From: Patescibacteria group bacterium
Lineage (GTDB): Bacteria; Patescibacteriota; Patescibacteriia; Patescibacteriales; JAQTRU01
NCBI GenBank assembly: GCA_041648955.1
Contig: JBAZOD010000002.1
Location: 1 to 37,500 of the forward strand
Length of the DNA stretch: 37,500 nucleotides
Direction of reading: 5' to 3'
The position numbers were made by a program, and so were the translations under genes. The notes under the pieces are model-generated. The model made no database searches and had not been told where the DNA came from. It saw nothing but the letters and a program-made list of their open reading frames with translations. Positions 14,401 to 30,744 of the stretch are shown here, one piece after another. Each line of letters opens with the position of its first letter. The first letter of the stretch is position 1.

Positions 14401-15151
14401 TATTGAAAAAAATAACAAAATAAAAGAAAATTTTAAACAGAGCATAGAAATTTTAGAGAAAGATAAAAAAAGTATTTTTTCTATCTCTCAAGCAAATAAA
14501 TCTGAGCACTTTTCAGAAAGTAATATTGTCCCCGAATTGGTGGATGCCTGTATTTTAGCACAAAAGAATGACGGTATTGTATTAACTGAGGATTTTTTAT
14601 ATTTGCAAGCCAATAATTTGCAAACAAATAAAGGTATACCAGAATATTGTTCACTGTTTTCTTTAATTAAAGAGTTGCTTAAAAAAGATAAAATATCTTT
14701 TGAGGACTATCTGAATGCCTTTTATTATTTGTCATCGTATAGGTGTAGGTTTCTAGATTTAAATACTGGTATTTTAATTAGGGCAATTTTTGGAGAAGAT
14801 AATAAATTGATTTTTGAATTTAAAAATATTAGAAAGTTAAATTTAGCTTTAACTTTATCCGAAGAATATGGAGTAAAAACAGAGGCCGCTATTCAGGTTA
14901 TGGGGGGATTTTTAGTAAGAATTATTATAGCCAATATTGTTTCTGTAGAAAATGCAAATAAAGTTTACAGAGAGGTGTTGCCAACTTTTTTCTTAAATCG
15001 TGATAAAAAAATTATCGGAAGATTATTGTTTGAATATTGTTCAAACTCTTTAGAGAAAATACTTAAAGAAAAATACATTTATTCCTTGCCGATTTTGATG
15101 AGTGAAAAATTAGCGGCTTTAGAAAAACAAATAAACGCACAACTGTTATAG
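11468..15151 (+). CDS. 1227-aa multidomain protein: N-terminal HNH nuclease motif, long TPR-like helical repeat region, C-terminal PIN-like domain
   Basis: HNH: CGGKCGFPEC...QIAHIKAQQPGGPRFD...NLIAFCQKHHKIIDD (about nt 11564-11760). TPR-like: AIKIYESLSKLYPKNVKPILYLAEIYLNKCDYEKNKELLEQA and VYLKNGDYKKALSSL. PIN-like: DIFLDGTTALFLAE (from nt 14198) ... ELVDACILAQKNDGIVLTEDFLY. An alternative start is ATG 11507. Confidence 0.8.
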   Translation: MFKVLIFKGNSKYMSYKKEQISPTTKIKVYINCGGKCGFPECKEHLVEENSIIGQIAHIKAQQPGGPRFDITLTKDKIDAPENLIAFCQKHHKIIDDHPDKYSVEDISNWKKDIEEWAKKSPEKTELGKKLILIILSDLEKELDRGNGEYVLKTIQSLKIITETIIKDDIIGSEIGILEAKSKQALEDVEGAIKIYESLSKLYPKNVKPILYLAEIYLNKCDYEKNKELLEQAEKIDNSHWLFVIEQLIREFRLNKKIDTSKINEKDFPEDKKQKATYYRIYSLFYQNEKNDIKADEFIEKSIKLYPYSFSAFNLKISHNLQRLIEKGFPLNHIEKAEDILSQIKEIEKEKNNWDRLHIRGRATLEFRKFYIYIIQQDGNKIISTGKGLIDLILKCSFDLDIDNFLSFLLANYRPEEKDFEKIISYLSNKKISYDLAKILAFQFCEKGKLLTDGKNFLSAKNEKIKNLILNIEENKESDVINFLKEDLQLMITFANCLKTNSGLRKKIIDSVPDDENIQKDRIYLLYYSDIKAYDDAFRIIQNIDFENASYLDCKISLKAVREKQAWEMEAKILERLFQLEKDERIKLSFKLDHFTACMKMEDYLEVINIGKYLLDNPKTFELMDKKNQELLLGQTITAYLQRSEEKEALGMLQKYPNIIESFEFIISVEAEVYLKNGDYKKALSSLCRGVKKIGKPTKEQYGYLFLSFTQLSNSGFAKIEPLEKVVSNSFIKFQNQEQWYYIGDGDELDATKIISANNKYNLLINKKINDNIDFPEDKYQTNKEQRIVENILSLEAYINWKSHDSFFSLSKQGRWDAGIAIEVPNKDDSIDVNNVINFIKDQQERGRNFFDDYCSNNYPFAFLALSEGGVTNAIGRITNENKGFIRFSDGSIQDIDRQRKVAEKILNGSDIFLDGTTALFLAETGLLKKIVPFIPNLKVPQSVISFLFKVLEKFNISPGQVGHMRCANDQLVFDKVDIEKNNKIKENFKQSIEILEKDKKSIFSISQANKSEHFSESNIVPELVDACILAQKNDGIVLTEDFLYLQANNLQTNKGIPEYCSLFSLIKELLKKDKISFEDYLNAFYYLSSYRCRFLDLNTGILIRAIFGEDNKLIFEFKNIRKLNLALTLSEEYGVKTEAAIQVMGGFLVRIIIANIVSVENANKVYREVLPTFFLNRDKKIIGRLLFEYCSNSLEKILKEKYIYSLPILMSEKLAALEKQINAQLL

Positions 15152-15179
15152 AAAGATTTTATTTTAGAGATTTTAAAAT

Positions 15180-15500
15180 TCACAAATTTTCAATAATCCG
15201 AAAAATTCTAGTAAAATTTTCCCAATCTTTCAATCGTGTCTCCTGCCATCCTCTGCTGGTTCTGATTTTTAAAAAGATTTTTTGCCTCTGAATTATTATC
15301 TGAATGAATTTTACCTTATCCTTTATAAACCAAATTCTTCTCTTAGTAAAAACAACCTCGCAATTATATCTTGCTGGGATTATTTTTATTAATTTATCAG
15401 CTTGACCCCTTAGCCTTAGATTATCCGTGTTTAATAGGTGGTAGCTTAGGTCGTAAAGCCTTGCCTGGCTGGGGCGGGTATATTTATTAGTATTAGTCAT
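15180..15500 (-). CDS. Hypothetical basic protein (106 aa)
   Basis: Intact ORF convergent with the 1227-aa gene. No motif recognised. Confidence 0.45.
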   Translation of the reverse strand: MTNTNKYTRPSQARLYDLSYHLLNTDNLRLRGQADKLIKIIPARYNCEVVFTKRRIWFIKDKVKFIQIIIQRQKIFLKIRTSRGWQETRLKDWENFTRIFRIIENL

Positions 15501-16878: not shown

Positions 16879-19140
16879 ATGAGTAAAGAACAAGAGTTTT
16901 CTGCTAAATGGCTTGGCCGAACACTCACTATAAAAACAGGCAAACTGGCTAAACAAGCTGATTCTGCCGTAACCGTACAGTATGGAGATACTGTTGTTTT
17001 GGCTACCGTCGTCCAAAGCAAAGAAGAAAGAGACGGAGTTGATTATTTCCCTTTATCAGTTGATTTCGAAGAAAAACTATACGCTGCGGGAATTATAAAA
17101 GGATCACAATGGATAAAACGCGAAGGCCGACCATCAGAAGAATCTATTCTATCTGGCCGCATGGTCGACAGGGCTGTTAGACCATTATTTAATGACTCAT
17201 CCAGAAAAGACGTACAACTCGTGCTTTCTATTCTTTCGGTTGACCAAGAAAATGATCACGATATTGTAGCCTTGATTGCCGCCTCAGCGGCTCTTTCTAT
17301 TTCCGGCGTTAAATGGAACGGACCAATTGGCGGCATCCGCGTTGCCAGAAATGAGGGCAAATTAATTTTTAACCCGACTTATGCAGAAAGAGAAAAAAGC
17401 GATTTGGATTTGACTGTTGCCGGAACAAACAAAAAATCAATCATGATTGAGGCGGGAGCAAGCGAAGTAACAGAGGATGATATGTACGAAGCTATTTTGG
17501 CTGGACAAAAAGAAATGCAGCCAGCGATTGATTTAATCAAAAAATTTGCCGAAAAAATTGGGGCAAAAGAAATAAAAGAAAAAAAAGAAAAGAAGGGCGC
17601 GGATGAAATAGCCAGCGAAAAAGAAAAAGAAGCCTTGATCGCCAAGGCTGACGAATGGCTGAAAAAAAACGTAAATAAAATTTTGTTCAACAAAGAATAT
17701 TATACAAAAGGAGAACGAAAGATGGCCGTGGGTTTAATTAAAGAAGGCCTGGATGAATTTCTATTTTCGGAAGGTGTTTCTAAAGACAACCGGCATTTCG
17801 TTATTGATAAAACAATTGACAAGGCAGTTGATTCTGAAGTAACCAGAGAAATTATAGAAAACAGCAGACGCGTAGATGGTCGAGGTCTGGAAGAAATCAG
17901 AAATTTAGAAGCTGATATTGATGTCCTGCCGAGAAACCATGGAGCTGGTCTTTTTTCCAGAGGAGAAACTCAGGTATTATCTATTGTCACTCTTGGCGCT
18001 GCCGGGCTTGCTCAAAGTATTGAAGGTCTTGAGGGTAATAGCAAAAAAAGATTCATGCATCATTATAATTTTCCCTCATTTTCAGTGGGCGAAGCCAAGC
18101 CAAACCGCGGTCCTAGCAGACGCGATATCGGACATGGCGCCTTAGCGGAAAAAGCTCTTGAAAAAATGATTCCAGCTAAAGAAGATTTCCCTTATACCAT
18201 CCGCGTTGTATCTGAAACTCTTGGCTCTAACGGCTCATCTTCTATGGGCGCAACCTGCGCTTCTACCTTAGCTCTCATGCATGCCGGCGTTCCAATAAAA
18301 AAACCAGTAGCGGGAATCGCCATCGGTCTAGCGTCTAATGACGACATGAGCAAATGGAAAGTTTTAACTGACATCCAAGATTTGGAGGACGGGAAAGGCG
18401 GTATGGATTTCAAAATAACAGGAACAACGGATGGAATCACTGCTATTCAACTTGATACAAAAACAAACGGCCTTACCGAAGAAATTATTAAAGAAGCTCT
18501 CAGACAAGGACGCGAAGGCAGGCTGAAAATTTTGGAAGTTATCAAAAAAACTATTCCTGAGCCGAACAAAGAACTTTCAAAATATGCGCCAAGAATTACC
18601 AGCTTCCATATCAATCCTGACAAAATTAGAGAGGTCATCGGAACAGGCGGAAAAATTATCAATGAAATTATTGCTAAACATGAAGTTCAAATTGATATTG
18701 AAGATGACGGCCTAGTAATGGTTTGCGGGGTTAATGCCGAGGGCGTTGAAAAAGCCGTGGCTTGGATTAAAGACATTGTCAGAGAAATTGAAGCAGGCGA
18801 AAAATTCACCGGCAAAGTTATGCGCATGCTAGATTTTGGCGCCTTCGTAGAATTACTTCCGGGCAGAGACGGTATGGTTCATGTGAGCGAAATGGCCCCA
18901 TACAGAGTCGGAAAACCAAGCGATCTCCTAAAAGAAGGCGACATTGTCACCGTGATCGTGAAAGAAATTGACGAAAAGGGAAGAGTAAATTTGACCATGA
19001 AAGGCCTGCCTGAAAATCAAGCGCTTTGGAAAGATGAAAAAGGAAAATCAGACGGTAATGGTGGAGACCGGCCAAGATTCGGAGGCGGAGGACGAGATAA
19101 ATTTTCCGGACGCGGAGATGGCGGCAGACGAAGATTTTAA
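16879..19140 (+). CDS. pnp: Polynucleotide phosphorylase with RGG-rich C-terminal tail
   Basis: Two RNase PH-like domains (RVDGR...IR, GSSSMGATCASTLALM), KH (IREVIGTGGKIIN) and S1 (GKVMRMLDFGAFVEL). The tail is GDRPRFGGGGRDKFSGRGDGGRRRF. Confidence 0.95.
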   Translation: MSKEQEFSAKWLGRTLTIKTGKLAKQADSAVTVQYGDTVVLATVVQSKEERDGVDYFPLSVDFEEKLYAAGIIKGSQWIKREGRPSEESILSGRMVDRAVRPLFNDSSRKDVQLVLSILSVDQENDHDIVALIAASAALSISGVKWNGPIGGIRVARNEGKLIFNPTYAEREKSDLDLTVAGTNKKSIMIEAGASEVTEDDMYEAILAGQKEMQPAIDLIKKFAEKIGAKEIKEKKEKKGADEIASEKEKEALIAKADEWLKKNVNKILFNKEYYTKGERKMAVGLIKEGLDEFLFSEGVSKDNRHFVIDKTIDKAVDSEVTREIIENSRRVDGRGLEEIRNLEADIDVLPRNHGAGLFSRGETQVLSIVTLGAAGLAQSIEGLEGNSKKRFMHHYNFPSFSVGEAKPNRGPSRRDIGHGALAEKALEKMIPAKEDFPYTIRVVSETLGSNGSSSMGATCASTLALMHAGVPIKKPVAGIAIGLASNDDMSKWKVLTDIQDLEDGKGGMDFKITGTTDGITAIQLDTKTNGLTEEIIKEALRQGREGRLKILEVIKKTIPEPNKELSKYAPRITSFHINPDKIREVIGTGGKIINEIIAKHEVQIDIEDDGLVMVCGVNAEGVEKAVAWIKDIVREIEAGEKFTGKVMRMLDFGAFVELLPGRDGMVHVSEMAPYRVGKPSDLLKEGDIVTVIVKEIDEKGRVNLTMKGLPENQALWKDEKGKSDGNGGDRPRFGGGGRDKFSGRGDGGRRRF

Positions 19141-19152
19141 AAAAAATAAAAT

Positions 19153-19186
19153 AAAAAAGATGAGATTAAAATCTCATCTTTTTTAT
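19153..19186. terminator. Bidirectional terminator between convergent pnp and the ATP-grasp gene
   Basis: aaaaaagatgagat-taaa-atctcatctttttt: a perfect 9-bp stem flanked by A and T runs. Confidence 0.65.
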
Positions 19187-19200
19187 TAAAAAATTTTATC

Positions 19201-20175
19201 TTATAATGTCGTAATCGGCCGAGACTGAGTAATATAAAATTTCCCGCCTGCCAAGGCCCATTCAATATCCTGCGGTTTTTTGTAATGCTTTTCAATTTTG
19301 TCGCAAAGTTTGGCAAGCTCAACAATTTCTTTACCCGTTAAAGTTTGCTTTTCTTGTTTTGCTTTTGGCACAATTTTCCAAATATTTCCGCCAGCTGGTT
19401 TTCTCACGAGCATTTTTTTCTGTTCCGCGACATTAATATCCGACAAACTGAAATCGCGTTTGTCTATTACATAAGTATCTGGCGTAATTTGCCCGGACAC
19501 AATCGCTTCCCCCAAGCCATATCCAGCTTCAATTACCATCTGATTTTTATCTTTTGTAATTGGATGAACCGTAAAACAAATTCCGGAAATTTCCGATTGA
19601 ACCATTTCTTGCACCACCACTGCGACTGAAACTCTCTGATCAATCATTTTCTTTTCATAGCGATAAAAAATCGCCCGCGGGGTAAAAAGAGAAGACCAGC
19701 ATTTTTTTACATTAGTAAGCAAGCTCTTTTCTTCGGTATTAAGATAAGTTTCCAGCTCGCCTGCCCAGGAAGCGATTGAAGAATCTTCAGCCGTGGCGGA
19801 ACTTCTCACCGCCACATATTTAGCTTTGAGTTTTTTGAATTCAGCCGTAATCTCTGTGGCCAGTTTTCCCGGAACCATCGTATCCCCCATAATATCACGA
19901 ATAATATTTGAAGCCTGGTCAATAGAATTGGTGTCGTCATAATTAACTTTGGAAAGCTGAGCGGTAATATCAAGCCCAGTTTGACCCGCTGGTGATTTTG
20001 GCGTATTATCCATAAAATAATCAAAGGCTGGAGCCAATATTACAAAACCAGGTGGCACTGGAATGCCAGCCCGAGTCATTTCTCCTAAGGAGGCACCTTT
20101 ACCTCCAGCAATTCCCACGTCTTTTTTGCTTAAATTAGCAAAATTTTTTATAAATTGTTGTTTTTTACTTGACAT
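19201..20175 (-). CDS. Stand-alone PEP-synthase/PPDK-type ATP-grasp (nucleotide-binding) domain protein
   Basis: GIAGGKGASLGEMTRAGIPVPPGF, VAVRSSATAEDS, GEAIVSG, PQDIEWALAGGKFYITQSRPITT. It aligns with the N-terminal domain of PpsA and ends exactly at its boundary. There is no His-swivel or PEP/pyruvate domain. Confidence 0.85.
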   Translation of the reverse strand: MSSKKQQFIKNFANLSKKDVGIAGGKGASLGEMTRAGIPVPPGFVILAPAFDYFMDNTPKSPAGQTGLDITAQLSKVNYDDTNSIDQASNIIRDIMGDTMVPGKLATEITAEFKKLKAKYVAVRSSATAEDSSIASWAGELETYLNTEEKSLLTNVKKCWSSLFTPRAIFYRYEKKMIDQRVSVAVVVQEMVQSEISGICFTVHPITKDKNQMVIEAGYGLGEAIVSGQITPDTYVIDKRDFSLSDINVAEQKKMLVRKPAGGNIWKIVPKAKQEKQTLTGKEIVELAKLCDKIEKHYKKPQDIEWALAGGKFYITQSRPITTL

Positions 20176-20286
20176 AATGTTTAAAAAATGATATACTTAT
20201 ATATTGACTGTTCCTTTACATTTTAACAGAATTTATTGAAATTCACCATATAATACATTATATTTCACACTGAACAGGAGAAAGTC

Positions 20287-20913
20287 ATGCGAACCTTTCG
20301 TGAACTTCGTAAAGACGAAAGCAGAGTTATTCTTGTGCGGCACGCGCCCCACAAAAACAATATCATTTTACCGAAATATATCATGCTTTGCCAAGCAATT
20401 GGTAGAGCGCTCAAGCAATCCGGGATTGAACTCGCCTCTTGCGTTTCATCTTCCATATTGCGTGCAAAATCAACAGCGGAAAATATTCTCAATGGAGCTG
20501 ATAGTTCTTTGTGCGTTATTGAAGCCCTGGAGCTGATCGATTTAATGGCTTTAGCCCCGGATGCGAAAATAATCGCTAAGGCCGAGGCAATCGCGACAAG
20601 TCTGAATTTTGCCGGAGATGAGGGATTATTCAAAATTATGTTTGATTCTTCTTTCCCGGAATTCTATGGGTTAGTCAAAAGCCGCGGCGAAGAAACTGCG
20701 AATTTTTTAAGGCAGCTTGCCGAAAAAAACCAGGAGTCAAATTGTCTTATTGTCACACACTTGGGGAGAATCCCAAACTCCTTGCAGATTCTGCACGGTG
20801 AAGAAATTCATCCGCCCGATCGGCTGGCAGGCAATTGTCAGGTTATTGAATTGATTTTTTCTAAAGGAAAATTGATCAAGGAAAATTGGCTTGATATAAA
20901 TGAACTTTTGTAG
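20287..20913 (+). CDS. Histidine-phosphatase superfamily protein (phosphoglycerate-mutase/SixA-like)
   Basis: N-terminal VILVRHAPH (RH catalytic motif) and a distal IVTHLG histidine. GC is intermediate between background and the next gene. Confidence 0.6.
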   Translation: MRTFRELRKDESRVILVRHAPHKNNIILPKYIMLCQAIGRALKQSGIELASCVSSSILRAKSTAENILNGADSSLCVIEALELIDLMALAPDAKIIAKAEAIATSLNFAGDEGLFKIMFDSSFPEFYGLVKSRGEETANFLRQLAEKNQESNCLIVTHLGRIPNSLQILHGEEIHPPDRLAGNCQVIELIFSKGKLIKENWLDINELL

Positions 20914-20924
20914 GGGGAAGGACC

Positions 20925-22184
20925 ATGAAAATTCTAGTCATTGTTTTGGGATTGTTTTTTACCATAAACCATTCTTTCGCGGAGGAAATCATGACTCCAA
21001 AATTACTGCAAGCGGCGCAAAACATGCAGAGTTATGTCGCCAATATCAGGGAGTATCTGCATCAACATCCGGGTATTCGGTTTTCAAAAGAAGAAACGGC
21101 GGCTCTCGAGTTTATCCAGGCGGAAGTCAAAGCCAAAATAAATTCCTCCCCTTACCGCGTAACCATACGCATGATGTCGGGAGGACTCGTCGTTGATGTC
21201 GAAGCCGATCCGAAATTCAACTGGATTCTGTTCAGGGCGGATATCGATGCTCTGGGCGTGGCCGAGGAAACCGGTTTGCCATATTCTTCGCAGACCCTGG
21301 GTGTCTCGCATGCCTGCGGTCATGACGCGAACAGCGCCATGCTCCTGGGCGCGCTCCGCCGCATTATTGAAGGCAAGCTCCCGATCAAACACAACATCCG
21401 CTTCGTGTTCCAGAGAGCCGAGGAAAACCCGATCACCGAATCGGGCGGAGCCATGCTCGTCCGCGAAGGCGTGCTTGACGGCGTATCCGCCGTCTATGCA
21501 ACGCACATCTTCACGGAGAACCAGGCGCCCAGCGGCCAGTGGCAGACTCGGCGCGGCCCGTTCATGAGTAATTCCGGACGCGTGAAAATCGAAATCACGT
21601 GCGAAGGCGGTCACGTCGCGACCCCGAACGAGGGGTCAAACGCGACGGAGATTATGGCCGACATCATCGTCGGGATGCGGAGTTTCGCTATAACGCATCT
21701 CGGGCCGTTGGAACCGACCAGCATTGTGCCCGCGACCGCTTCCGCTGGCGAGCCCAATGCGTCAAACGTCCGCCCGGGAAGCGCGGTGCTGTGGTTTTCT
21801 TTTCGCCATTTGCTTTCCCCCGAAAAGGCGGGAAAGATCAAGGCGGAAATGAAAACCCGGATTGAAGCAATCGTGTCGGCTTATCCCGACGCGGAAGTGA
21901 AAATCACTTTCTACGACGGCCACCCGGCTCTTCGCAACGATCCGGCCGAAACGCAGAAGGTCATAGATCTTCTCGCCGCGGCGGGTGAAAAAGACGTGGT
22001 GGAAATCGACCCGCTCTTCGGCGGAGAAGATTTCGCCCACTATCTGAACAAGGTGCCGGGAACGATGGTCTTCCTCGGAGCCTGGCAGAAGGGATCTGGT
22101 ACTCATCACCAGAAAAATTTCAACCCCGATCCTTCCGTGTTCTGGAAAGGCGTGTTTTACTGGTTGCTTCTTGCAACCAACTGA
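20925..22184 (+). CDS. M20D-family amidohydrolase (N-acyl-amino-acid/hippurate hydrolase-like), GC-rich
   Basis: LHQHPGIRFSKEET, HACGHD, GGEDFAHY. Alternative start ATG 20991 is preceded by GGAGG (20981-20985). The upstream 22 codons (MKILVIVLGLFFTINHSFAEEI) look like a signal peptide. Confidence 0.85.
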   Translation: MKILVIVLGLFFTINHSFAEEIMTPKLLQAAQNMQSYVANIREYLHQHPGIRFSKEETAALEFIQAEVKAKINSSPYRVTIRMMSGGLVVDVEADPKFNWILFRADIDALGVAEETGLPYSSQTLGVSHACGHDANSAMLLGALRRIIEGKLPIKHNIRFVFQRAEENPITESGGAMLVREGVLDGVSAVYATHIFTENQAPSGQWQTRRGPFMSNSGRVKIEITCEGGHVATPNEGSNATEIMADIIVGMRSFAITHLGPLEPTSIVPATASAGEPNASNVRPGSAVLWFSFRHLLSPEKAGKIKAEMKTRIEAIVSAYPDAEVKITFYDGHPALRNDPAETQKVIDLLAAAGEKDVVEIDPLFGGEDFAHYLNKVPGTMVFLGAWQKGSGTHHQKNFNPDPSVFWKGVFYWLLLATN

Positions 22185-22200
22185 TCCCTTTCCAAATAAA

Positions 22201-22241
22201 TAATTACCCCCGTCATGCAAATGATGGGGGTAATTTTTTTT
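22201..22241. terminator. Bidirectional terminator between convergent genes
   Basis: taattacccccgtcat-gcaa-atgatgggggtaatt followed by a T-run. A 14-bp stem with one G-U pair. Confidence 0.7.
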
Positions 22242-22243
22242 GA

Positions 22244-23170
22244 TTAAACTTTTATATCCAGCAAATAAGTTACAACCGCCAGTCCCGCTTCCACATAAGG
22301 CTCTTGCTGTGTGTAGACCGCTCTTGGGTCCGAATCAACTTCTTTCTCAATTTCAAAGATGCGCGGTTTTAGCATTAACAATATGGCGTCTTTTCTTAAT
22401 TTTTTCATGTGCTCGGTGTTGATAGACTTATAGCTTTTTAAAATTATCTCTTCTTTTTCTTTTGAAAATTTGTCCGCGGGTATGATTCCTTTTTGCAGTC
22501 CTCTGGTTACAATTAAAACATCAACATCTCCGATAAAATTATCAAGCTTGTCATAACGCAAACTTTTTATGCCGTTGGCTCGGGCGCGGTCTTCCACTTC
22601 TTTCGGCAACGGGAAATGGCCCAAGTCGTCAATCACCATATCAACATTATACATGCCAAGAATTGGAACAAGCGCTTTAGTCACGCGATTTATTTCCGGC
22701 GTGCCATAGATTCCAACCTTGATACCCTCAAGTGGTCGCTTTAAATAATGACCCAAGAAACAAATTAACAAAGGCGTTGCTACTCCGTGTTCTCTTGAGC
22801 CACTGCCACTATTTATCACGGGGACGAATGAAGATTTAGCGGCTCTCTCCGAAGAATCGTCATCAGGATGCCGCAAAGCGATGCAATCGGCGAAACTACC
22901 ATATTCTCTGATAGTCTCTTCTAGCGTTTCTCCCTTGCCCATAGAAAGAGCGTCTTCTCCTGTTACCCCGATCCATCCTCCGCCGGCGCGCAACATCGCT
23001 GACTGAAACATATTCATAGTTCTGGTGGAAGGCTGAAAAAATAAAGTGGCGACAATTTTGCCTTTGCAAAGGTCATTCGGAATTCCTTCGGTCATAAATT
23101 TTTGAAATCTTCTTTGTATTTCAATATACTCGCTTTTATTAAGATCTTTAGAATAAATTAAATGTTTCAT
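22244..23170 (-). CDS. Aspartate/ornithine carbamoyltransferase-fold protein with degenerate active-site motifs
   Basis: FFQPSTRTMN (STRT carbamoyl-phosphate motif), KGETLEET, ALRHP and PVINSGSG are retained. HPTQ is replaced by HGVAT, and the C-terminal HPLP is replaced by LMLKP. Confidence 0.7.
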   Translation of the reverse strand: MKHLIYSKDLNKSEYIEIQRRFQKFMTEGIPNDLCKGKIVATLFFQPSTRTMNMFQSAMLRAGGGWIGVTGEDALSMGKGETLEETIREYGSFADCIALRHPDDDSSERAAKSSFVPVINSGSGSREHGVATPLLICFLGHYLKRPLEGIKVGIYGTPEINRVTKALVPILGMYNVDMVIDDLGHFPLPKEVEDRARANGIKSLRYDKLDNFIGDVDVLIVTRGLQKGIIPADKFSKEKEEIILKSYKSINTEHMKKLRKDAILLMLKPRIFEIEKEVDSDPRAVYTQQEPYVEAGLAVVTYLLDIKV

Positions 23171-23264
23171 AAATATTTTTTTAATAATAAATATACTTAA
23201 TTTTTTATTTTGCCGATTTTGTCCAAGAGCTCAAGCGATTGGCAACAAAATCGAGCATCCCGCC

Positions 23265-24761
23265 CTAGCGGCGGGATAACTTCCTCACTATTCCATTATT
23301 TGCATCAACCTCTACTATATCTCCGTCTTTTAGCAATAACATCACTCCCTGTACGCCGACAATGCAGGGAATTTTTAATTCTCTTGCCACAATAGCCGAG
23401 TGGCAGGTGATTCCTCCCTCTTCACTAATAATCGCGCCGGCCATTTTCATAATCGGAACGTATTCCGGCCGGGTGTTGGGAGCGACCAAGATATTTCCCT
23501 TTTTCATTTTATAAAAATCATTTTTGTCTTTGATAATTTTTACTTCCCCCTTCACAAAGCCCCTATAAGCCGCCATGCCTTTTAAATCTTTCTTCCGGGC
23601 AATCAACTTTCCTAAAAACCGATTTAGAGCGCCAGCCTCTTCCCCACAATACTCTTTTTCTCCTCTGATAAAGCCCCCGACAAAAAATAAAATTCCCTCA
23701 ACGCGGCTTAAAACCCGGCGCTTATCAGCGGAAGTGAGTTTTAAAATATCTTTTATTTCCCAAAAAAATGAATTTTCGATTATTTTAATGTCCAGTTTAG
23801 TTTTTTTAGCGAAAGCAGCCGCGAATTTTTTCAAAACCGCTCCCGCCATTTGATTATAGCTTTTCCGCTCATCCCTTAAATTCCCCAGGACAGACAAAAA
23901 ATTTAAAATATTTCTGGTTTCTGCCGGCAATCTATATTTTTTTATAATTTTCTCTTTTTTTCTTTTTAACTCCGCCAAATATTTCTTCATCTCTTGTTCG
24001 GCGCGAAGTTTATTTCTATCTTTTAATAACAATAATAAATTTTTATAAAAATAATCTGAACCCAAATAAATAACGCTGGCAAAATCGTTATGAAGCCAAT
24101 GATATTTGGCGCTATGCGCTTGTAGTTCTTTTTTTATTACAATTTTTAATATCTTATTATTTTTTAATACCCGTTCCGCAATATCTAAAAGCTCCAGCCT
24201 TTCCTTTTGCAGCCAAGAAGGCCTGGGCGGAGTTAATAATATTTCCAGCTCCGCCGGCTTGATCTCTTTGCTGTTTTTCTTAAGAGCCTTTTCTAAAATT
24301 TCTTCGCCACAATAGTCAAAACCGTCCAGAAAAATAACTTCTGACCACAAGTCTAAATATATCTTCGTAAAAATTTTAAAATGACAAAATAATTCTTTTA
24401 AATTTAACCCGGAAAAATCCAAATTAAAATATTCTTTCAAGGATTTTAAAAAAGGTAAGACATTATTTTCTTTCCAATTTTTATCCAATTCATAAATAAA
24501 CTTTTTATTTTTTCGCTGCTCACCAAAATAAAAATAAGCAACCTTTCTTAAAGATCTAATTGAAATATAATCAGACATGAAGTTATTTTTCAAAAAAACC
24601 GCTATTTCATATTTTGATTTTATTGTTTTTCCGAAAACTTTAAAATGCGAACAGGCATAAATCGGATAAGCAATATAAAAGGGTTTAACAGCGCCGCCTT
24701 GTAAATACCATTCTAATTTACCCAATTTATTTTTAATTAGTTTAATGCGATTATTTGTCAT
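23265..24761 (-). CDS. Paralogue 1: unrecognised N-terminal region plus PEP-utilizer phosphohistidine (swivel) domain
   Basis: C-terminal GNILVAPNTRPEYVPIMKMAGAIISEEGGITCHSAIVARELKIPCIVG. Shares the KYHW and RDERK blocks with the other four paralogues. Confidence 0.8.
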   Translation of the reverse strand: MTNNRIKLIKNKLGKLEWYLQGGAVKPFYIAYPIYACSHFKVFGKTIKSKYEIAVFLKNNFMSDYISIRSLRKVAYFYFGEQRKNKKFIYELDKNWKENNVLPFLKSLKEYFNLDFSGLNLKELFCHFKIFTKIYLDLWSEVIFLDGFDYCGEEILEKALKKNSKEIKPAELEILLTPPRPSWLQKERLELLDIAERVLKNNKILKIVIKKELQAHSAKYHWLHNDFASVIYLGSDYFYKNLLLLLKDRNKLRAEQEMKKYLAELKRKKEKIIKKYRLPAETRNILNFLSVLGNLRDERKSYNQMAGAVLKKFAAAFAKKTKLDIKIIENSFFWEIKDILKLTSADKRRVLSRVEGILFFVGGFIRGEKEYCGEEAGALNRFLGKLIARKKDLKGMAAYRGFVKGEVKIIKDKNDFYKMKKGNILVAPNTRPEYVPIMKMAGAIISEEGGITCHSAIVARELKIPCIVGVQGVMLLLKDGDIVEVDANNGIVRKLSRR

Positions 24762-24763
24762 AT

Positions 24764-26266
24764 TTATTCTATTTTTTTGACTACTCCTTTTTTTAAATCT
24801 ATCTCTACCTCGTCGCCGTTTTTGAAAGAATAGGTAGCGACTTTTGTCCCTGTTATACAGGGTTTGTTCATTTCCCTGGCAACGATAGCGGCGTGACAGG
24901 CCATTCCGCCTTCGTTGGTAATAATAGCCTTAGCTTTGTGCATCAGGGGAACAAATTCAACCCTAGTCATACTGGTAATTAAAATTTCTCCGTCCAAAAA
25001 TTTTTCTTTTTCCGGATTATTTATAATTCTCACTCTTCCTCTGACAATCGAATTATCACCAACGCTCGCCACTGTTCCCTTTACTTCTTCGCTAAAATTT
25101 TTTGGCGCTACTATTTCTAGCAGTCCTCTTGCTTCTTCTCCAAAAAACATCTTTACTGGTTTATTTTTTTCATAGGCAAAAAATACTTCTTTCTGTCTCC
25201 GCGCTATTTCACCTTTTTTCAACCTCTCTCCTTTTTCTAAGAGATTAAAAATATCCCTCAAAGTATAAAATGATATTTCTCTATAATCCATTTTAAAACT
25301 TTTTGCTATATCTTCGGCCATTATGAAAAAATAATAAAATATGCTCATCATGACCATCTTCCGAAAATCAACCAGACTGAAAATCTTTTGAGAGAAAAGT
25401 GTTTCTTTTTTATCTAAAAGCGAAAAACTCATTTTTCCAAGAAGTTTCTGACGTTCAACCTCTATGCCTTTTATTTTTTTACGATTGCTTCTCAATTCCC
25501 TCATTATTCCTGTTAAACCTGTTTTTTTAATTTCATCTTTTGCTCTCCTTGTTATAGATCCATTCGAAATTTTTCCTGCTCCAAAAAAAGTCGAAGCGAA
25601 CCAAAAATACTTCTCTCGATAATTTGCCAGTAATTTAAGAATACTTTTAGATTGTCTATTTTTTTCTTCTTGTTTTGCGATCTCTAAACAAATATTCAAA
25701 AAATCTTTTCTTTCGCTATTATAAATAGCGGACTCCTTTGGATGAGCTAAAACATTTATTACTCTCTGCGCTTCCGACTCAGACAAATTATGTCGCGCTT
25801 GAAATTTTGGAACAACCATTCTGTTTATTACTTCTCCTTTATCCTCTAAGACACAGGCATATTTCCACCACATAACAGAGTACCTAATAAAATCCTTAAA
25901 AATTCTATTAAAATCTGCAGATATTTTATCCTCCTTAAGTTCTTTATATTCTTCCCAATTTTTATCAATCTTTTCTTTTAATTCTTCCTGACGACTACGA
26001 AACAAATCTAAACTTCTTGGATTTTTCATATACACCCGATAAATCTTATTAGAAATTTCAATATCTTTCTTTTGTATAATCTGATAAAAGGGTTTGAGAG
26101 TAGCTGTGTCTATATAGGAAAAAACATATTGATAGGTATATTCTGGGATAACGTGGCCATTCGTATATGACCCGAAACAAAAATCAAGCGCCAAGACGGA
26201 AGCGATGGCGTTTTGGATATCAAATTCGCTTTGGGCAAGGACTTTTTTTAACTGTTTTTTGTTCAT
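24764..26266 (-). CDS. Paralogue 2: unrecognised N-terminal region plus PEP-utilizer phosphohistidine domain
   Basis: C-terminal ILITSMTRVEFVPLMHKAKAIITNEGGMACHAAIVAREMNKPCITG. Contains the KYFW block. 2-nt gap to paralogue 1. Confidence 0.8.
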   Translation of the reverse strand: MNKKQLKKVLAQSEFDIQNAIASVLALDFCFGSYTNGHVIPEYTYQYVFSYIDTATLKPFYQIIQKKDIEISNKIYRVYMKNPRSLDLFRSRQEELKEKIDKNWEEYKELKEDKISADFNRIFKDFIRYSVMWWKYACVLEDKGEVINRMVVPKFQARHNLSESEAQRVINVLAHPKESAIYNSERKDFLNICLEIAKQEEKNRQSKSILKLLANYREKYFWFASTFFGAGKISNGSITRRAKDEIKKTGLTGIMRELRSNRKKIKGIEVERQKLLGKMSFSLLDKKETLFSQKIFSLVDFRKMVMMSIFYYFFIMAEDIAKSFKMDYREISFYTLRDIFNLLEKGERLKKGEIARRQKEVFFAYEKNKPVKMFFGEEARGLLEIVAPKNFSEEVKGTVASVGDNSIVRGRVRIINNPEKEKFLDGEILITSMTRVEFVPLMHKAKAIITNEGGMACHAAIVAREMNKPCITGTKVATYSFKNGDEVEIDLKKGVVKKIE

Positions 26267-26287
26267 AACTAAAAATATTCTAAATTA

Positions 26288-27859
26288 TCAATCTTTTATT
26301 TTTCTAACCCAGCCGTGATTAGCGTTTACTTCCACTAAATCTCCGTCTTTCAAGACTTTAGTGGCAATTTTAGTTCCAATAATGCAGGGGATGCCTAACT
26401 CACGTGCCACGATAGCAGCATGACAGGTAATTCCGCCCTCATCCGTAACTAAGGCACCGGCATTCTTTATGCCAACAATGTAATCTGGCCTAGTCATAAC
26501 TGCTACCAGAATATCTCCTTTTTCAACTTTACCAACCTCTTTAACGCTTTTTATTATTTTTACCCGCCCCCGGGCTTTGCCACTGGCGGCGGAAAGTCCG
26601 CGAAAATCATTAATTTCTCCCTGCTTTTTATCATTGGTAAAAATCTGCTTAATCGCCTTTTCTGCTTCTAGACCGGAATATATTTCGTAAAAATTATTTT
26701 TCTGGTAAATTAAAGACAATTTCTTCCGCTCCTCCAAATCCTTCGCGCGGAAAGTATTTTTTCCCTGAAGCAAATCCATAACTTCCCGGCTCGTTAAATA
26801 TTTCATCCCGTCAAGCGAATGTTTTGTCCGCTGGCCGATGATTTCAAGAAGTATGGAAGCGTAATGCGTAAAATGAAAGGTCATTTTCTTTCGTTCATCC
26901 TGCCAATGGGTAAAGTCTTCCGAAATTTCCAGTAAGTTTAAAAGAAAATTATCAGGCTTCAGCTGGGAGATTATTTTTTTCTTCTCCAATTTATTCAAAA
27001 ACGGCGTTTTTTTAATTCTAAACAGTTCTCTTTCCAAATTCACCGAGCTAGATATCAAGCTTTTAAGTTCTTTAATAAAATAATTTATGTCTAATATATT
27101 ATTATCGTAATAATTATTTTTTGACCAAAAATAATTTTTAGCATGGATTTCCAGGTGTTTTTTAAAAATAGGGGATAACGCGAGCTTGTTTTTAATTTTC
27201 GCGATTTCACTCGTAAAAAATTTTTTTAATTTTTTATCCTTTTTAATTTCAATCGCCAGTCTTATCAACGATAGCTCCGCCTCATTTATAAATGACTGGT
27301 GAACAGGCGCGGTGAGTTTGGAAAAAATAATTCCTCTGCCTTTATCAATTCCTCTTTTATCTAAAAAATCATTAATCTTTTTTTGCACGATTTCATCAGT
27401 CCCAAGGGCAAATCCATCGATAAGAGATGACGAGCTGATAGCGCGCCTATAAACTTCCGTGAATTTTGAATATAAATCGCCAAGTTCTCTTATAGTTATA
27501 ACTTCCAAATGTAATTTATCAATTTTTCGGCAATAATTTAAAAATCCTTTTTCATCCCCTCTCCATTGGCTAATTATTTTCTTCCCGATATTTTTACCGT
27601 TTTTAGCTTTCTTCAAAAATAAGCTCGTTACTCTTTCAATATCTTCCCTGTCTATATACCAATCAACCGTGTTATTTTTGAATATGCCGAAGTGGGAGGA
27701 AAAATTTCCTCCCTTCATTTTTCTTTTTTCTGGTCTCATTTCTCCTTCGCTAATCATCCAAATCAAATTTATACACCCATCAAAACGCTGGTTGTACCAT
27801 TTTTTATTTCTAATAACCTCTAAATTCTTTTTAATTAAATCTTTTTGATGCTCAATCAT
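26288..27859 (-). CDS. Paralogue 3: unrecognised N-terminal region plus PEP-utilizer phosphohistidine domain
   Basis: C-terminal ILVAVMTRPDYIVGIKNAGALVTDEGGITCHAAIVARELGIPCIIG. Contains the NYFW and WQDERK blocks. Confidence 0.8.
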   Translation of the reverse strand: MIEHQKDLIKKNLEVIRNKKWYNQRFDGCINLIWMISEGEMRPEKRKMKGGNFSSHFGIFKNNTVDWYIDREDIERVTSLFLKKAKNGKNIGKKIISQWRGDEKGFLNYCRKIDKLHLEVITIRELGDLYSKFTEVYRRAISSSSLIDGFALGTDEIVQKKINDFLDKRGIDKGRGIIFSKLTAPVHQSFINEAELSLIRLAIEIKKDKKLKKFFTSEIAKIKNKLALSPIFKKHLEIHAKNYFWSKNNYYDNNILDINYFIKELKSLISSSVNLERELFRIKKTPFLNKLEKKKIISQLKPDNFLLNLLEISEDFTHWQDERKKMTFHFTHYASILLEIIGQRTKHSLDGMKYLTSREVMDLLQGKNTFRAKDLEERKKLSLIYQKNNFYEIYSGLEAEKAIKQIFTNDKKQGEINDFRGLSAASGKARGRVKIIKSVKEVGKVEKGDILVAVMTRPDYIVGIKNAGALVTDEGGITCHAAIVARELGIPCIIGTKIATKVLKDGDLVEVNANHGWVRKIKD

Positions 27860-27860
27860 A

Positions 27861-29306
27861 TTATTTATTTAAAATCGTTATAACCCCCTTATTCGCGTCA
27901 ACATCAACTCTATCTCCATCTTTTAAGACCTTGGTAGAAATTTTAGTTCCGACAATGCAGGGAATATCAAGCTCGCGCGAAATAATCGCAGCGTGACAGG
28001 TTAAGCCCCCTTCATCGGTGATAATACCCCTCACTTTCTTTAAAATCGGCACGAATTCCGGTCTGGTCATGCTGGCGACCAAAATATCACCAGCTTTAAC
28101 TTTTTTTAAATCCATTATGCCCTTACAGACAACCACTCTGCCGATTGCTTTGCCCTTATTGGCGATTGTTCCTTTTAATTCACTTTTCAAATAATTTTTA
28201 TTCAAATTTTCTCTAAATTCCAATATTTTTTTATAATCGTTCCCGACCGCCGAGATTTCAGTATTTTTTTTCATTATAAAAAATACGCCATTTTTTCTTT
28301 CTCGCAATTCCGGCAAAATTTTTTTAAGAGAATGAATAGATAATTTTTTCCGCATATCAGCCGCGCTTAAATAATTTAGCGATTCCCTGTCTATTTTAAA
28401 CCGCCGGCTAATTTCATCAGCCACTAAATCAATATAATGGACGACTTTAATTGAATTGGCCTTCCGCTCATCCTGCCAAGTGCTCGCGAATTCAACTAAT
28501 TTAATAAGCTTCTTGCCCGCCGCATTCAAGCGCAACTCGAAAATTAATTTTTCTTTCTTTGCATTTGATATTAATTTATTTTGTCTGGGTTCAATTTTTA
28601 TTTTTTCCATTCTTTTTCTCAAAGACCTGATGGTAATTTCTTTCGGGCCAGCGTAGCTGTTTTGCACCCAAAAATATTTCTTCAAGTGTTTTTTTAGCGC
28701 TTCCTCTCTTTTTTCAACCGGCAACTTTTTTATTTCGAACAATGACTGCTCTTCCTGGGCGATAAATGACATTTCTAAAGGAGATGATAATAAGCTTATA
28801 AAATTATCCGCCTCTTTTTTATTTTTTATCTGCTTCGAGATCTCATTTCTAAAATCTTTTTCAATTTCCAGGCCGAACGGGTCAACAACATGAGCAATCC
28901 CCACGGCATCAATTTGTGCTATCGCGACTTTTTTAAATAAGCCGAACAACTCGTCTTCGCTGACTTTCTTTAAATCATAATTATTCAACTTTTCAAAAAA
29001 AATCTCATGTTCAAAAAAATTTTTTTCATATCTTATTTTCAACTTTTTTAAATAATCTGGATCCTTTTTTAATTCCAATTTTATTCTTTTAAAAACATCT
29101 TTTAAATCTTTTTTATAATAATACATTTCTCCGTAATCGCCCTTGTAATTGAACAAAAAAATCGTATAACCAAAGCCTAAAATTTTGCGAATTTTAAAAC
29201 CGCTATAGGCCGCGTGATTCAGATATGTTGGCAAAGCGCTAAAACCTTGGACAAACCAGTCGCGCGCTAATTCTTTTCTAAATTGATTTAAAATATCCAT
29301 ATCCAT
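27861..29306 (-). CDS. Paralogue 4: unrecognised N-terminal region plus PEP-utilizer phosphohistidine domain
   Basis: C-terminal ILVASMTRPEFVPILKKVRGIITDEGGLTCHAAIISRELDIPCIVG. Contains the KYFW and WQDERK blocks. 1-nt gap to paralogue 3. Confidence 0.8.
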   Translation of the reverse strand: MDMDILNQFRKELARDWFVQGFSALPTYLNHAAYSGFKIRKILGFGYTIFLFNYKGDYGEMYYYKKDLKDVFKRIKLELKKDPDYLKKLKIRYEKNFFEHEIFFEKLNNYDLKKVSEDELFGLFKKVAIAQIDAVGIAHVVDPFGLEIEKDFRNEISKQIKNKKEADNFISLLSSPLEMSFIAQEEQSLFEIKKLPVEKREEALKKHLKKYFWVQNSYAGPKEITIRSLRKRMEKIKIEPRQNKLISNAKKEKLIFELRLNAAGKKLIKLVEFASTWQDERKANSIKVVHYIDLVADEISRRFKIDRESLNYLSAADMRKKLSIHSLKKILPELRERKNGVFFIMKKNTEISAVGNDYKKILEFRENLNKNYLKSELKGTIANKGKAIGRVVVCKGIMDLKKVKAGDILVASMTRPEFVPILKKVRGIITDEGGLTCHAAIISRELDIPCIVGTKISTKVLKDGDRVDVDANKGVITILNK

Positions 29307-29310
29307 TTTT

Positions 29311-30744
29311 TTACAAAATTTTAATTACACCCTTATTTGCATCCACCTCCACCAAATCGCCATTTTTCAGCACCTGCGTCGCAATTTTTGTCCCAACAAC
29401 ACAGGGAATTCCCAGCTCACGCGAAATAATTGCGGCGTGGCAGGTGATTCCGCCCTCGTCAGTAATTATTGCCTTAGCTTTTTTCATCGCCGTTACATAA
29501 TCTGGCAATGTCATTGGACAAACAAGAATATCTCCTTTTTTTATTTTTTTTAAAGCCTCTTCAGCTCCGTTACATATCTTAACTTTTCCAAATACTTTTC
29601 CGAGCGAAGCTCCCACTCCCTTTAAATCTTTAATCTTATTTTCTTTATATACTATTTCATGGTTAGCAAATTTAATAGCCTTTTCACCACTTAATAATTT
29701 ATAGCCTTTTTTATCAACTAAAACCAAAACTGCTTTTTTCCGCCTAACAATTTCCTTTTTATCTAAACGTGCTCTGGCTAAAATTAATTTTATCTCATTT
29801 CTGTTTAACCACTCCAAATCATTCCAATCCAATTTAACGCGCCGAGCCACTTCTCTTAATATTAAATTACCGGCATAAACGGTTTTAACTTGCATTTCCT
29901 TACGAAGATCATGCAAATAAAAAAACTTCTCCATTACATCAAGCCAACCACGGAATTCTTTTGAAAAATCATATTTTTTTATAATTGCTCTTCGCAATTT
30001 TATATTCTCTTGAACACGACTATTTAATTTTAAATATTTTCCCTTTAAGTCTCGAGCTTTTCTTAATTTTAAGATTTTGTTATTAAAAAATTTCTTGGAA
30101 TAAGGGAGAATAGTTTCCCAACCAAGCCTGGTCCACCAAAATTTTTTAAAAACTTTATTTATTTCTTTCTCAATCTCCGTTCTGCTTAAAGCAGCTCTCA
30201 CCATCGCCAATTCCTGTTGATTGATGTATGAACGGTAAATAGGTCTAGAAATATTTTCATAAAGTTTATAAAAATCTTCTTCAGAAAAAAAAGCGGGTAA
30301 TTCTTCTCGCAATTTATCTTGCAAAAATTTTTCGAATACAATGTCTATGGAATCAACTTCCGTTGTCATCACAACATGCGCGCACGATCCCTCTTCAAAT
30401 AAATAATCCAATAAATTTCTTAATTCTCTATCAGACAATTTTTTTAAATCAATTTTTTTTATTTTTTCAGCTGCCAATATCGCTCTCCTGGCGTAGCTCT
30501 TTATCGTTTTAAAATATTTTTCTACTCCACCCTTACTACTACAAATTTTAATAATTTCATCACCAAGATTTTTAATTTCTCTTTTATTCCATGACCAAAA
30601 AAGTACGGGCCCATTATTAAAATAAAAAACCGCTGAAAAATTCGTTGGTAATAATTTCCGGATTGATTTTTGATTTATTTCTTCCATTATTAAAGATACC
30701 CTAAATAACGGAATTGTGCCTCTTTTATAAACTTCCCATTTCAT
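29311..30744 (-). CDS. Paralogue 5: unrecognised N-terminal region plus PEP-utilizer phosphohistidine domain
   Basis: C-terminal ILVCPMTLPDYVTAMKKAKAIITDEGGITCHAAIISRELGIPCVVG. Contains the KFWW block. First gene of the minus-strand array. Confidence 0.8.
   Translation of the reverse strand: MKWEVYKRGTIPLFRVSLIMEEINQKSIRKLLPTNFSAVFYFNNGPVLFWSWNKREIKNLGDEIIKICSSKGGVEKYFKTIKSYARRAILAAEKIKKIDLKKLSDRELRNLLDYLFEEGSCAHVVMTTEVDSIDIVFEKFLQDKLREELPAFFSEEDFYKLYENISRPIYRSYINQQELAMVRAALSRTEIEKEINKVFKKFWWTRLGWETILPYSKKFFNNKILKLRKARDLKGKYLKLNSRVQENIKLRRAIIKKYDFSKEFRGWLDVMEKFFYLHDLRKEMQVKTVYAGNLILREVARRVKLDWNDLEWLNRNEIKLILARARLDKKEIVRRKKAVLVLVDKKGYKLLSGEKAIKFANHEIVYKENKIKDLKGVGASLGKVFGKVKICNGAEEALKKIKKGDILVCPMTLPDYVTAMKKAKAIITDEGGITCHAAIISRELGIPCVVGTKIATQVLKNGDLVEVDANKGVIKIL

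Follow-up and report, generated by a model that had tools for sequence, protein, structure and literature searches.

A stand-alone ATP-grasp subunit and five swivel-domain paralogues as a candidate two-component dikinase in Patescibacteria

The window, the whole 37,500-nucleotide stretch of a Patescibacteria group bacterium analysed here (contig JBAZOD010000002.1, positions 1–37,500), contains a gene for a stand-alone ATP-grasp domain and an array of five tandem genes whose products end in a phosphohistidine swivel domain. All six genes lie on the minus strand. Here we describe these genes and their relatives in other genomes, and weigh the possibility that they encode a small-molecule dikinase split in trans.

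One ATP-grasp gene and five tandem swivel paralogues

The ATP-grasp gene (19201..20175, minus strand) encodes a protein of 324 amino acids (aa) that consists of PPDK_N alone (Pfam PF01326, E 6.9e-93, profile positions 3–311 of 328). In NCBIfam, the protein matches positions 2–337 of 798 in the phosphoenolpyruvate (PEP) synthase model and positions 2–313 of 864 in the model of rifampin phosphotransferase (RPH). Because the former alignment covers positions 2–337 of 798, the protein ends at the point where PpsA goes on into its His domain. The original prediction had described this gene as a PPDK_N-type ATP-grasp domain and nothing more, which both databases bear out; the minus strand is a detail added here. 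Among PDB entries, the closest in sequence were the PEP synthase 8a8e (258 bits), RPH-Lm's ATP-grasp domain (220 bits) and 9goj (387 aa, 172 bits), which is probably HpeI.

A concern raised at the outset was that this open reading frame (ORF) might be the remnant of a truncated ppsA. A search of 5.8 billion clusters cleared it: the 120 best homologues were all 310–369 aa long, contained PF01326 only and were 66–91% identical to the query. The source bacterium is placed near Falkowbacteria and Buchananbacteria, whose ATP-grasp proteins are 80–84% identical to that of the window. In the 20 genomes retrieved via the ATP-grasp protein, the gene was again an ORF of ~311–357 aa, apart from shorter copies of 230–234 aa in two loci (L008 and L024). 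Over 41 loci, the median identity to the window proteins was 61% for the ATP-grasp protein versus 34% for the best paralogue match, and this stronger conservation is what would be expected of a subunit that has to fit many partners. We propose that the protein is a shared ATP-loading component, analogous to PpsB, CreI and HpeI of the characterised two-component RPH-like dikinases PpsAB, CreHI and HpeHI (PMC12167813).

The five swivel paralogues were found as predicted, as back-to-back ORFs on the minus strand, with successive gaps of 2, 21, 1 and 4 nucleotides. Paralogue 1 (23265..24761, 498 aa, PF00391 E 1e-25), the last gene of the array, carries His454 at 23400–23402 and an LRDERK block at 23862–23873. 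Paralogue 2 (24764..26266, 500 aa, PF00391 E 7.1e-23) is the most divergent, with His458 at 24893–24895, an LVDFRK block at 25358–25369 and Ala in place of Thr two residues before the His. Paralogue 3 (26288..27859, 523 aa, PF00391 E 5.1e-25) has His480 at 26420–26422 and a WQDERK block at 26888–26899, and paralogue 4 (27861..29306, 481 aa, PF00391 E 7.6e-26) has His438 at 27993–27995 and a WQDERK block at 28461–28472. Paralogue 5 (29311..30744, 477 aa, PF00391 E 1.1e-27) combines a predicted RPH-like acceptor domain (aa ~1–365) with the swivel, and has His436 at 29437–29439 and a D279-x-R281-K282 block at 29899–29910.

The C-terminal PEP-utilizers domain PF00391 (E 1e-23 to 1e-28) was the sole Pfam domain in each paralogue; as had been claimed, Pfam detected neither an ATP-grasp domain nor a PEP-utilizers_C TIM barrel in any of the five, and no PF02896 TIM barrel in any ORF of the window. 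The predicted swivel motif GG(I/L/M)(T/A)CH(A/S)AI(V/I)(A/S)RE was present exactly in all five, with the catalytic His 42–45 residues before the C-terminus. Read from paralogue 1 to paralogue 5, the sequences SEEGGITCH, TNEGGMACH, TDEGGITCH, TDEGGLTCH and TDEGGITCH give the consensus (T/S)(D/E/N)EGG(I/M/L)(T/A)CH and all fit T/SxxGGxxxH. Among 328 related paralogues from 98 loci, the His motif was kept in 321 and T/SxxGGxxxH was matched by 309, and the PEP synthase-type Thr two residues before the His was kept in most.

The ATP-grasp gene has the same orientation as the array and lies 3.1 kb downstream of it. An aspartate/ornithine carbamoyltransferase (OTCace)-like gene on the minus strand and two plus-strand genes, for an M20 amidohydrolase and a His_Phos_1 protein, lie between them. 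The ATP-grasp gene is therefore probably a separate transcription unit. Terminator-like hairpins were found at the end of the array (23256–23278, minus strand, overlapping the stop codon of paralogue 1), between the convergent M20 and OTCace-like genes (22202–22235, 15-bp stem) and after the ATP-grasp gene (19150–19187, 17-bp stem), and fit separate transcription of the array and the ATP-grasp gene. The promoter and terminator scans scored consensus matches only, with promoter matches close to shuffle expectation, and so lend weak support to operon boundaries.

An RPH-like acceptor domain and the proposed reaction

The N-terminal regions of the five paralogues are strongly diverged but mutually homologous, as the original prediction had held: pairwise identity was 21–26% for these regions alone (E 1e-12 to 1e-4) and 27–30% for the whole proteins. 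Of the two conserved blocks named there, (K/N)(Y/F)(F/H/W)W was found in all five paralogues, whereas WQDERK/RDERK was exact in three of the five, and the common core is D-x-R-K (LVDFRK in paralogue 2, LHDLRK in paralogue 5). The statement that the regions match no recognised domain also held in part. No Pfam model covers them and the NCBIfam matches are partial, but profile matches continue into the central domain of RPH for ~130 aa before the swivel.

To characterise the fold, AlphaFold2 models were built for the most typical paralogue (paralogue 5; pLDDT 93.7, pTM 0.92) and the most divergent one (paralogue 2; pLDDT 91.3, pTM 0.89). In a Foldseek search of the PDB, six RPH-Lm entries were the top six matches for both models, with query TM-scores of 0.56–0.58 over ~570–590 aligned columns and top-match E values of 3.4e-15 (paralogue 5) and 1.6e-15 (paralogue 2), and all further matches were restricted to the swivel. 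Because RPH-Lm alone matches both models over their full length, the N-terminal regions are, on these predicted structures, RPH-type acceptor domains, as the original prediction had suggested that such a structure search might reveal. The acceptor domain comprises ~365–410 aa compared with ~430 aa in RPH, at ~15% identity.

Profiles built from the five paralogues and from 44 family sequences both aligned with RPH-Lm from residue ~623 to the C-terminus (623–866). In this alignment, the h-D-x-R-K-e block of the family falls on R666-E667-x-x-K670 of RPH, which places D279 on Glu667 and K282 on Lys670 (paralogue 5 numbering). The Asp in place of Glu667 and the Lys670 equivalent are invariant in all five paralogues and in the family alignment, and an invariant Arg directly precedes the conserved Lys of the D-x-R-K block. 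Stogios et al. (PMC4844700) describe the 'Arg-Glu and Lys' block of RPH as persisting in even the remotest clades of the superfamily.

Two other readings of the array were weighed. PEP synthase models and structures give the best scores for both the ATP-grasp and the swivel domain, and public labels agree with this, so the genes could be taken for a fragmented or decaying PEP synthase (a split ppsA or the remains of pseudogenes), or for wrongly called ORFs, without any shared function. However, the TIM barrel is missing, the scores are far under the PEP synthase cut-off, all six ORFs are intact and the models are confident with an RPH-like fold. As the family is moreover large (4278 representatives) and conserved, we rejected a split or decayed PEP synthase, whose residual probability we regard as negligible. 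A PigC/RedH-like activating or condensing enzyme, in which phosphorylation by the swivel His would activate a carbonyl or hydroxyl group for substitution and the final products would not be phosphate esters, finds some support in the fact that PigC/RedH models reach as far into the N-domain as RPH models (residues 180–519 of paralogue 3 align with PigC 527–880 at 69.5 bits in NCBIfam) and that PigC-type proteins share the ATP-grasp, central domain and swivel order. Yet the PigC/RedH scores are ~60–77 bits against cut-offs of 1300–1350 bits, the loci lack a biosynthetic cluster context, and the phosphatases, adenylyl/cytidylyltransferases and HD and HAD hydrolases nearby suit phosphorylated intermediates. 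We therefore consider this kind of chemistry improbable.

The RPH-type fold, the D-x-R-K alignment and the linkage and fusions described below agree in silico with the proposal of an RPH-like enzyme split in trans. We accordingly regard it as probable that the six proteins form a two-component small-molecule dikinase of the RPH superfamily, with one hub and several spokes. In PpsAB, CreHI and HpeHI, a free ~40 kDa ATP-grasp subunit works with an RPH-like substrate-binding subunit that carries a C-terminal swivel His in T/SxxGGxxxH; the His attacks the β-phosphate of ATP, the γ-phosphate is hydrolysed, and the phospho-His returns to its own substrate domain (PMC12167813). Their complex is transient and the released products are AMP and inorganic phosphate (Pi) (PMC12167813). 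By analogy, the 324-aa protein would bind ATP and offer it to the swivel of each of the five paralogues in turn, and the swivel His (H454, H458, H480, H438 or H436) would attack the β-phosphate, upon which AMP and then Pi would leave. The phospho-His domain would then swing back onto its own RPH-like helical N-domain, where the D-x-R-K block would catalyse phosphoryl transfer to the bound substrate X (ATP + X + H2O → AMP + Pi + X-P). A transient complex would be exactly what such a shared hub needs. We infer that phosphate passes from the free ATP-grasp protein to all five partners, in the forward direction, and that it is received by small molecules. These might be metabolites that an organism of minimal biosynthetic capacity scavenges and that phosphorylation would retain in the cell.

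Arrays, fusions and neighbours in related genomes

To place the window among its relatives, a paralogue profile was run against 185,579 species genomes, which returned at least 596 stretches, and the best 75 distinct loci were examined. The combined set comprised 98 non-redundant loci (designated L below); linkage counts cover ±10 kb around the matches. Starting from the ATP-grasp gene, 19 of 20 loci held 1–6 swivel paralogues of at least 300 aa within 10 kb, mostly directly upstream and on the same strand. The apparent exceptions were L016, which lies at a contig end and has no paralogue, and L024, which has a 110-aa swivel fragment only. The best 75 paralogue loci contained a median of 3 and a maximum of 10 tandem paralogues, with a stand-alone ATP-grasp gene in 28 and a fused one in 4. 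The co-occurrence of stand-alone PPDK_N genes with such arrays, which the original prediction had proposed to measure in related genomes, was seen from both sides. Of the 46 loci in which both gene types were present, 44 had all genes on one strand and 26 had the ATP-grasp gene at the array's 3′ end; a median of 48.5 nucleotides separated it from the closest paralogue. More than one intact ATP-grasp ORF was found in none of the 98 loci.

Fusion proteins extend this picture (P, ATP-grasp; R, acceptor domain; s, swivel). Three loci contain fusion ORFs that are open under genetic code 11: two P-R-s fusions in the RPH order (L052, 8849–11341; L065, 1515–3926) and a 1993-aa ORF that begins R-s-P (L034, 247–6230). 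Database representatives showed the orders P-Rs-Rs, P-Rs-Rs-Rs and Rs-Rs-Rs-P-Rs, although these database proteins could be gene-calling merges. Overall, the set of fusions, which includes the representatives P0125, P0136, P0150 and P0214, has proteins of 830 to 2309 aa that join an ATP-grasp domain with 1–4 acceptor-plus-swivel units, as well as tandem Rs-Rs(-Rs) fusions lacking ATP-grasp. We read the multi-unit fusions as direct genomic support for one ATP-grasp domain serving several acceptor modules; together with the finding of no more than one intact ATP-grasp ORF per locus, they uphold the proposed one-to-several relationship at the level of gene layout.

In the related loci, 46 further array ORFs (~330–390 aa, some 426–520 aa) keep the swivel but have an N-domain that the family hidden Markov model does not recognise (for example, L003, 11446–12456; L021, 3530–4567; L087, 1664–2674). 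In all 46, the swivel is at the C-terminus and not ahead of a TIM barrel, and these ORFs may represent further acceptor-domain types.

Several observations weigh against a dikinase shared in trans. In the window itself, the ATP-grasp gene stands outside the array operon, 3.1 kb away and with two opposite-strand genes in between, and elsewhere many arrays are far from an ATP-grasp gene, as the count of 28 in 75 loci indicates. TM-scores of 0.56–0.58 at a root-mean-square deviation of ~9 Å indicate the same fold as RPH but a smaller acceptor domain that is packed differently, and the position of RPH Arg666 varies (H, Q, R or V among the five). In addition, some activity in the absence of an ATP-grasp protein is conceivable, because HpeH alone moves phosphate from 4-phosphoacetophenone to acetovanillone (PMC12167813).

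This last point leads to an alternative in which the paralogues work without the free ATP-grasp protein, drawing on another donor (PEP, an acyl- or carbamoyl-phosphate, or a phosphometabolite) in a transphosphorylation network that runs via the swivel His. Such a network would accord with the behaviour of HpeH, with the absence of an ATP-grasp gene within ±10 kb in 47 of the best 75 paralogue loci and with the recurrence of acyl-phosphate-producing enzymes (Pta, OTCace-like) beside arrays. It is harder to reconcile with the tight same-strand linkage where both genes are seen, with the ATP-grasp fusions and with the finding that stand-alone ATP-grasp genes almost always lie beside paralogues. 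Nor does the window encode a PEP-binding TIM barrel, and the swivel of all 46 ORFs with an unrecognised N-domain is C-terminal. We thus judge a donor network of this kind to have a small chance of being correct, and retain a shared ATP-grasp hub as the preferred reading.

The family is large. A profile of the N-domain only matched 4278 representatives at 50% clustering (E ≤ 1e-3), 625 of them at E ≤ 1e-30, and 110 of the 140 listed matches with a tabulated architecture were plain acceptor-plus-swivel proteins, mostly 450–530 aa long, in which residue 1 is the start of the domain. Apart from a few bins with doubtful labels, the hosts were Patescibacteria, or candidate phyla radiation (CPR) bacteria, and DPANN archaea (Woese-, Nano-, Micr-, Iain- and Undinarchaeota). 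Clustering of the 328 paralogues yielded at least 20 subfamilies, each represented about once per array and mostly common to bacteria and archaea, and in these terms the window array reads D-C-A-L-K from paralogue 5 to paralogue 1. For each window paralogue, orthologues elsewhere score 2–4 times above any paralogue in the window. Paralogue 1 (subfamily K) has an orthologue in a Moranbacteria genome at 482–539 bits, paralogue 4 (subfamily C) has orthologues in 12 other loci at 270–430 bits versus at most 222 bits to the other window paralogues, and paralogue 3, of the most widespread subfamily A, has orthologues in 21 loci, including DPANN archaea. Because orthologues elsewhere outscore the paralogues within the array, the array is a set of old, distinct enzymes and not a recent local expansion. 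A recent lineage-specific duplication, or 'rapidly diversifying battery', was rejected, as the closer orthologues lie in distant genomes, archaea included. As every one of the five represents a separate old subfamily, each most likely has a substrate of its own.

In three DPANN loci (L039, L057 and L071), the paralogue 3 orthologue was 45–46% identical to its window counterpart versus 36–43% for the ATP-grasp protein, the reverse of the bacterial pattern. This comparison of subfamily A with the ATP-grasp protein hints at the transfer of single acceptor subfamilies between domains of life.

Neighbouring genes were surveyed alongside the arrays. The His_Phos_1 gene of the window (20287..20913, plus strand; Pfam E 2.2e-7) encodes a 208-aa protein of the histidine phosphatase superfamily, a possible accessory phosphatase or mutase acting on the products or on phospho-His, whose membership of the system is uncertain. 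Divergent RHG-type histidine phosphatases of ~200–330 aa adjoin the arrays of at least 21 further loci (L001, 20216–21139; L003, 18019–18942; L013, 1123–2049; L014, 13085–14056; L020, 6024–6899; L021, 8049–8897 and 10965–11852; L032, 11174–12163; and others). They form three or four sequence clusters (10 + 6 + 5 loci) with an invariant RH...R...H pattern, and their profile matches PhoE and phosphoglycerate mutase structures (E 4.5e-10); the window copy is weakly related to them (hhalign E 0.0027). These proteins might dephosphorylate the products or phospho-His, as SixA does. A further family of 158 aa, 'THG', was observed beside arrays in 6 loci.

Directly downstream of the array, the OTCace-like gene (22244..23170, minus strand) encodes a 308-aa protein (OTCace_N E 6.6e-25, OTCace E 3.2e-9) that retains STRT and RHP but falls below the NCBIfam equivalog cut-offs for both aspartate and ornithine carbamoyltransferase (150.7 versus 236.95 bits for the former). 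Its family occurs in 9 array loci, with the same position in L003 and L004. The M20 amidohydrolase (20925..22184, plus strand; 419 aa, Peptidase_M20 E 4.1e-29) has a hydrophobic, signal-peptide-like N-terminus, scores above an NCBIfam amidohydrolase subfamily cut-off (205 versus 153.75 bits) and is a conserved neighbour in L003 and L004, with the same relative position and the opposite strand in L003. In L003, from another Patescibacterial genome, the order of array, histidine phosphatase, OTCace-like gene, M20 gene on the opposite strand and ATP-grasp gene mirrors the window, and its OTCace-like and M20 segment (18962–21126) has the order and orientation seen in the window. At 55%, the G+C content (GC) of the M20 gene exceeds that of the window (35%) and of the array (34%), and the L003 counterpart likewise has 39% compared with 31% for its surroundings; horizontal acquisition or a compositional constraint is possible.

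Other tight recurrent neighbours were a small RfaE-II/TagD-like adenylyl/cytidylyltransferase, HAD-IA and HD hydrolases, an LbH acetyltransferase, Pta and MtxX-like proteins, which fit a metabolism of phosphorylated intermediates but point to no particular substrate. Subfamily-specific pairings (J with HAD and then a histidine phosphatase; T with HD) were scanned for substrate clues; none involves the five subfamilies of the window, and the recurrent partners are generic. In Moranbacteria GCA_000995965.1 (L001/L002, 14377–16237), an array of at least 7 paralogues has genes for flavokinase, riboflavin synthase (Lum_binding) and lumazine synthase in its middle, which may be a clue to a flavin-related substrate of a neighbouring subfamily.

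The neighbours also bear on which way the reaction runs. Genes for Pta and transcarbamylase-like proteins are repeatedly found next to arrays, the window's own array is directly followed by an OTCace-like gene, and CPR and DPANN organisms live by fermentation on a limited energy supply. These circumstances would suit a reverse, energy-conserving operation, in which a phosphometabolite charges the swivel His and the ATP-grasp protein makes ATP from AMP and Pi, as PEP synthase and PPDK can do in the glycolytic direction. However, hydrolysis of acetyl- or carbamoyl-phosphate yields ~−43 to −51 kJ/mol, too little to drive AMP + Pi → ATP + H2O, so that only PEP-class donors could pay for ATP formation, and at least 20 subfamilies are hard to square with a handful of high-energy donors. 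Reverse operation therefore appears very unlikely, and we keep to forward phosphorylation by a shared hub.

The remainder of the window is of a different character. The flanking genes are bacterial housekeeping genes (IF-2, PNPase, S15 and TrmD), and positions 1–15500 have a low GC (28–32%) and resemble a mobile or defence island. This part encodes serine recombinases (74–1747 and 8746–9534), N4/N6 DNA methylases (2937–3695 and 4682–5605), a weak PvuII-like endonuclease ORF (3690–4670), an SNase-domain protein (6691–7662), a DUF2726 nuclease-like ORF (10839–11333) and a 1227-aa protein (11468–15151) whose N-terminal region resembles a defence-effector endonuclease and which also has TPR repeats and a PIN domain of the TPR-GreAB-C-PIN type. 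Despite the restriction–modification and nuclease genes in this left third, PADLOC gave no match for any protein of the proposed dikinase system, and a known anti-phage defence system was rejected as an explanation.

Taken further, the data allow a tentative and rather speculative generalisation, which we think less likely to hold than the two-component assignment itself: a hub-and-spoke system of this kind may be a major unrecognised part of the small-molecule kinase repertoire of CPR bacteria and DPANN archaea, as ultra-small symbionts. One conserved ATP-grasp 'charger' would serve from 5 to more than 10 acceptors of at least 20 old subfamilies, each phosphorylating, and so trapping or activating, a different scavenged metabolite and replacing absent canonical kinases, while the products would be handled by dedicated histidine phosphatases, HAD and HD hydrolases and nucleotidyltransferases. 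If the dikinase model is right, thousands of proteins would be re-labelled as substrate-specific dikinases with a common ATP-loading subunit. It would also be necessary to correct metabolic reconstructions for CPR and DPANN organisms, which may count these genes as gluconeogenic PEP synthase, since the genes cannot have that role without a PEP/pyruvate domain. The system would also offer a testable entry point to metabolite capture and activation in minimal host-dependent cells, which is poorly understood, and the natural fusion proteins could be used directly as constructs for biochemistry.

Comparison with known systems

PEP synthase and PPDK provide the closest sequences for the ATP-grasp and swivel domains, and GGxTCHAAI(V/I)(A/S)RE is PEP synthase-like, including the Thr two residues before the His. 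In contrast to PEP synthase, the proteins described here have no PF02896 TIM barrel, and the third domain is RPH-like and stands ahead of the swivel, not after it. The PEP synthase model NF005057 has a cut-off of 598 bits, which was missed by both the ATP-grasp protein (325 bits) and the paralogues (102–129 bits). Public annotation nevertheless labels relatives as 'PEP-utilizing enzyme', 'pyruvate, water dikinase' or 'putative phosphoenolpyruvate synthase'; because the TIM barrel is absent and an RPH-like domain precedes the swivel, the PEP synthase labels are likely wrong.

RPH-Lm (PDB 5FBS, 5FBT, 5FBU and 5HV1) is the only full-length structural match, aligns with the paralogues across its Glu667/Lys670 block and has the domain order of the P-R-s fusions. 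RPH is, however, one polypeptide of ~865 aa with a rifampin-binding domain of ~430 aa, whereas the ATP-grasp domain is encoded by a separate gene in the window. Scores against the RPH equivalog (NF041857 / NF000283) were 53–70 bits for the paralogues and 291 bits for the ATP-grasp protein, far below the cut-off of 999 bits, and nothing points to rifamycin as a substrate. PigC, RedH and HapC belong to the same superfamily and follow the same three-module logic, and their NCBIfam models align with part of the N-domain and the swivel, but they are single polypeptides of ~880 aa encoded in pigment clusters, and the window proteins score more than 15-fold under their cut-offs. MarK, considered as a related aromatic kinase, was rejected as an unrelated UPF0261 protein that produces ADP. 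The PRK08296-type NCBIfam models, presumably those of PpsA/HpeH, match the paralogues in the swivel only and not in the N-domain.

The closest precedents in organisation are two-component enzymes. The phenylphosphate synthase PpsAB has been known since the 2000s, and HpeHI was shown in 2025 to be a two-component RPH homologue (PMC12167813). The window proteins share with PpsAB, CreHI and HpeHI the division of labour and the swivel signature. They differ in that each characterised system consists of one ATP-grasp gene and one acceptor gene, located in aromatic-catabolism clusters of Actinobacteria and Proteobacteria, and the acceptors are ~70 kDa in size and ~45% identical to one another, whereas the window has a ratio of 1:5 (up to 1:10 elsewhere) and acceptors of 477–523 aa from different subfamilies, in Patescibacteria and DPANN genomes with no aromatic-catabolism context. 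The original prediction had stated that it knew of no described system with this layout. A split in trans is in fact known from these three systems, but the one-to-many layout was found in no searched paper, and literature searches returned no description of one-to-many arrays, of a restriction to CPR and DPANN or of multi-unit fusions. If the proposed mechanism is correct, two-component dikinases, so far 1:1 and acting on phenolic substrates, would be extended to a one-to-many architecture. The split itself is already known; what looks new is the layout of one ATP-grasp protein to many acceptors and its distribution.

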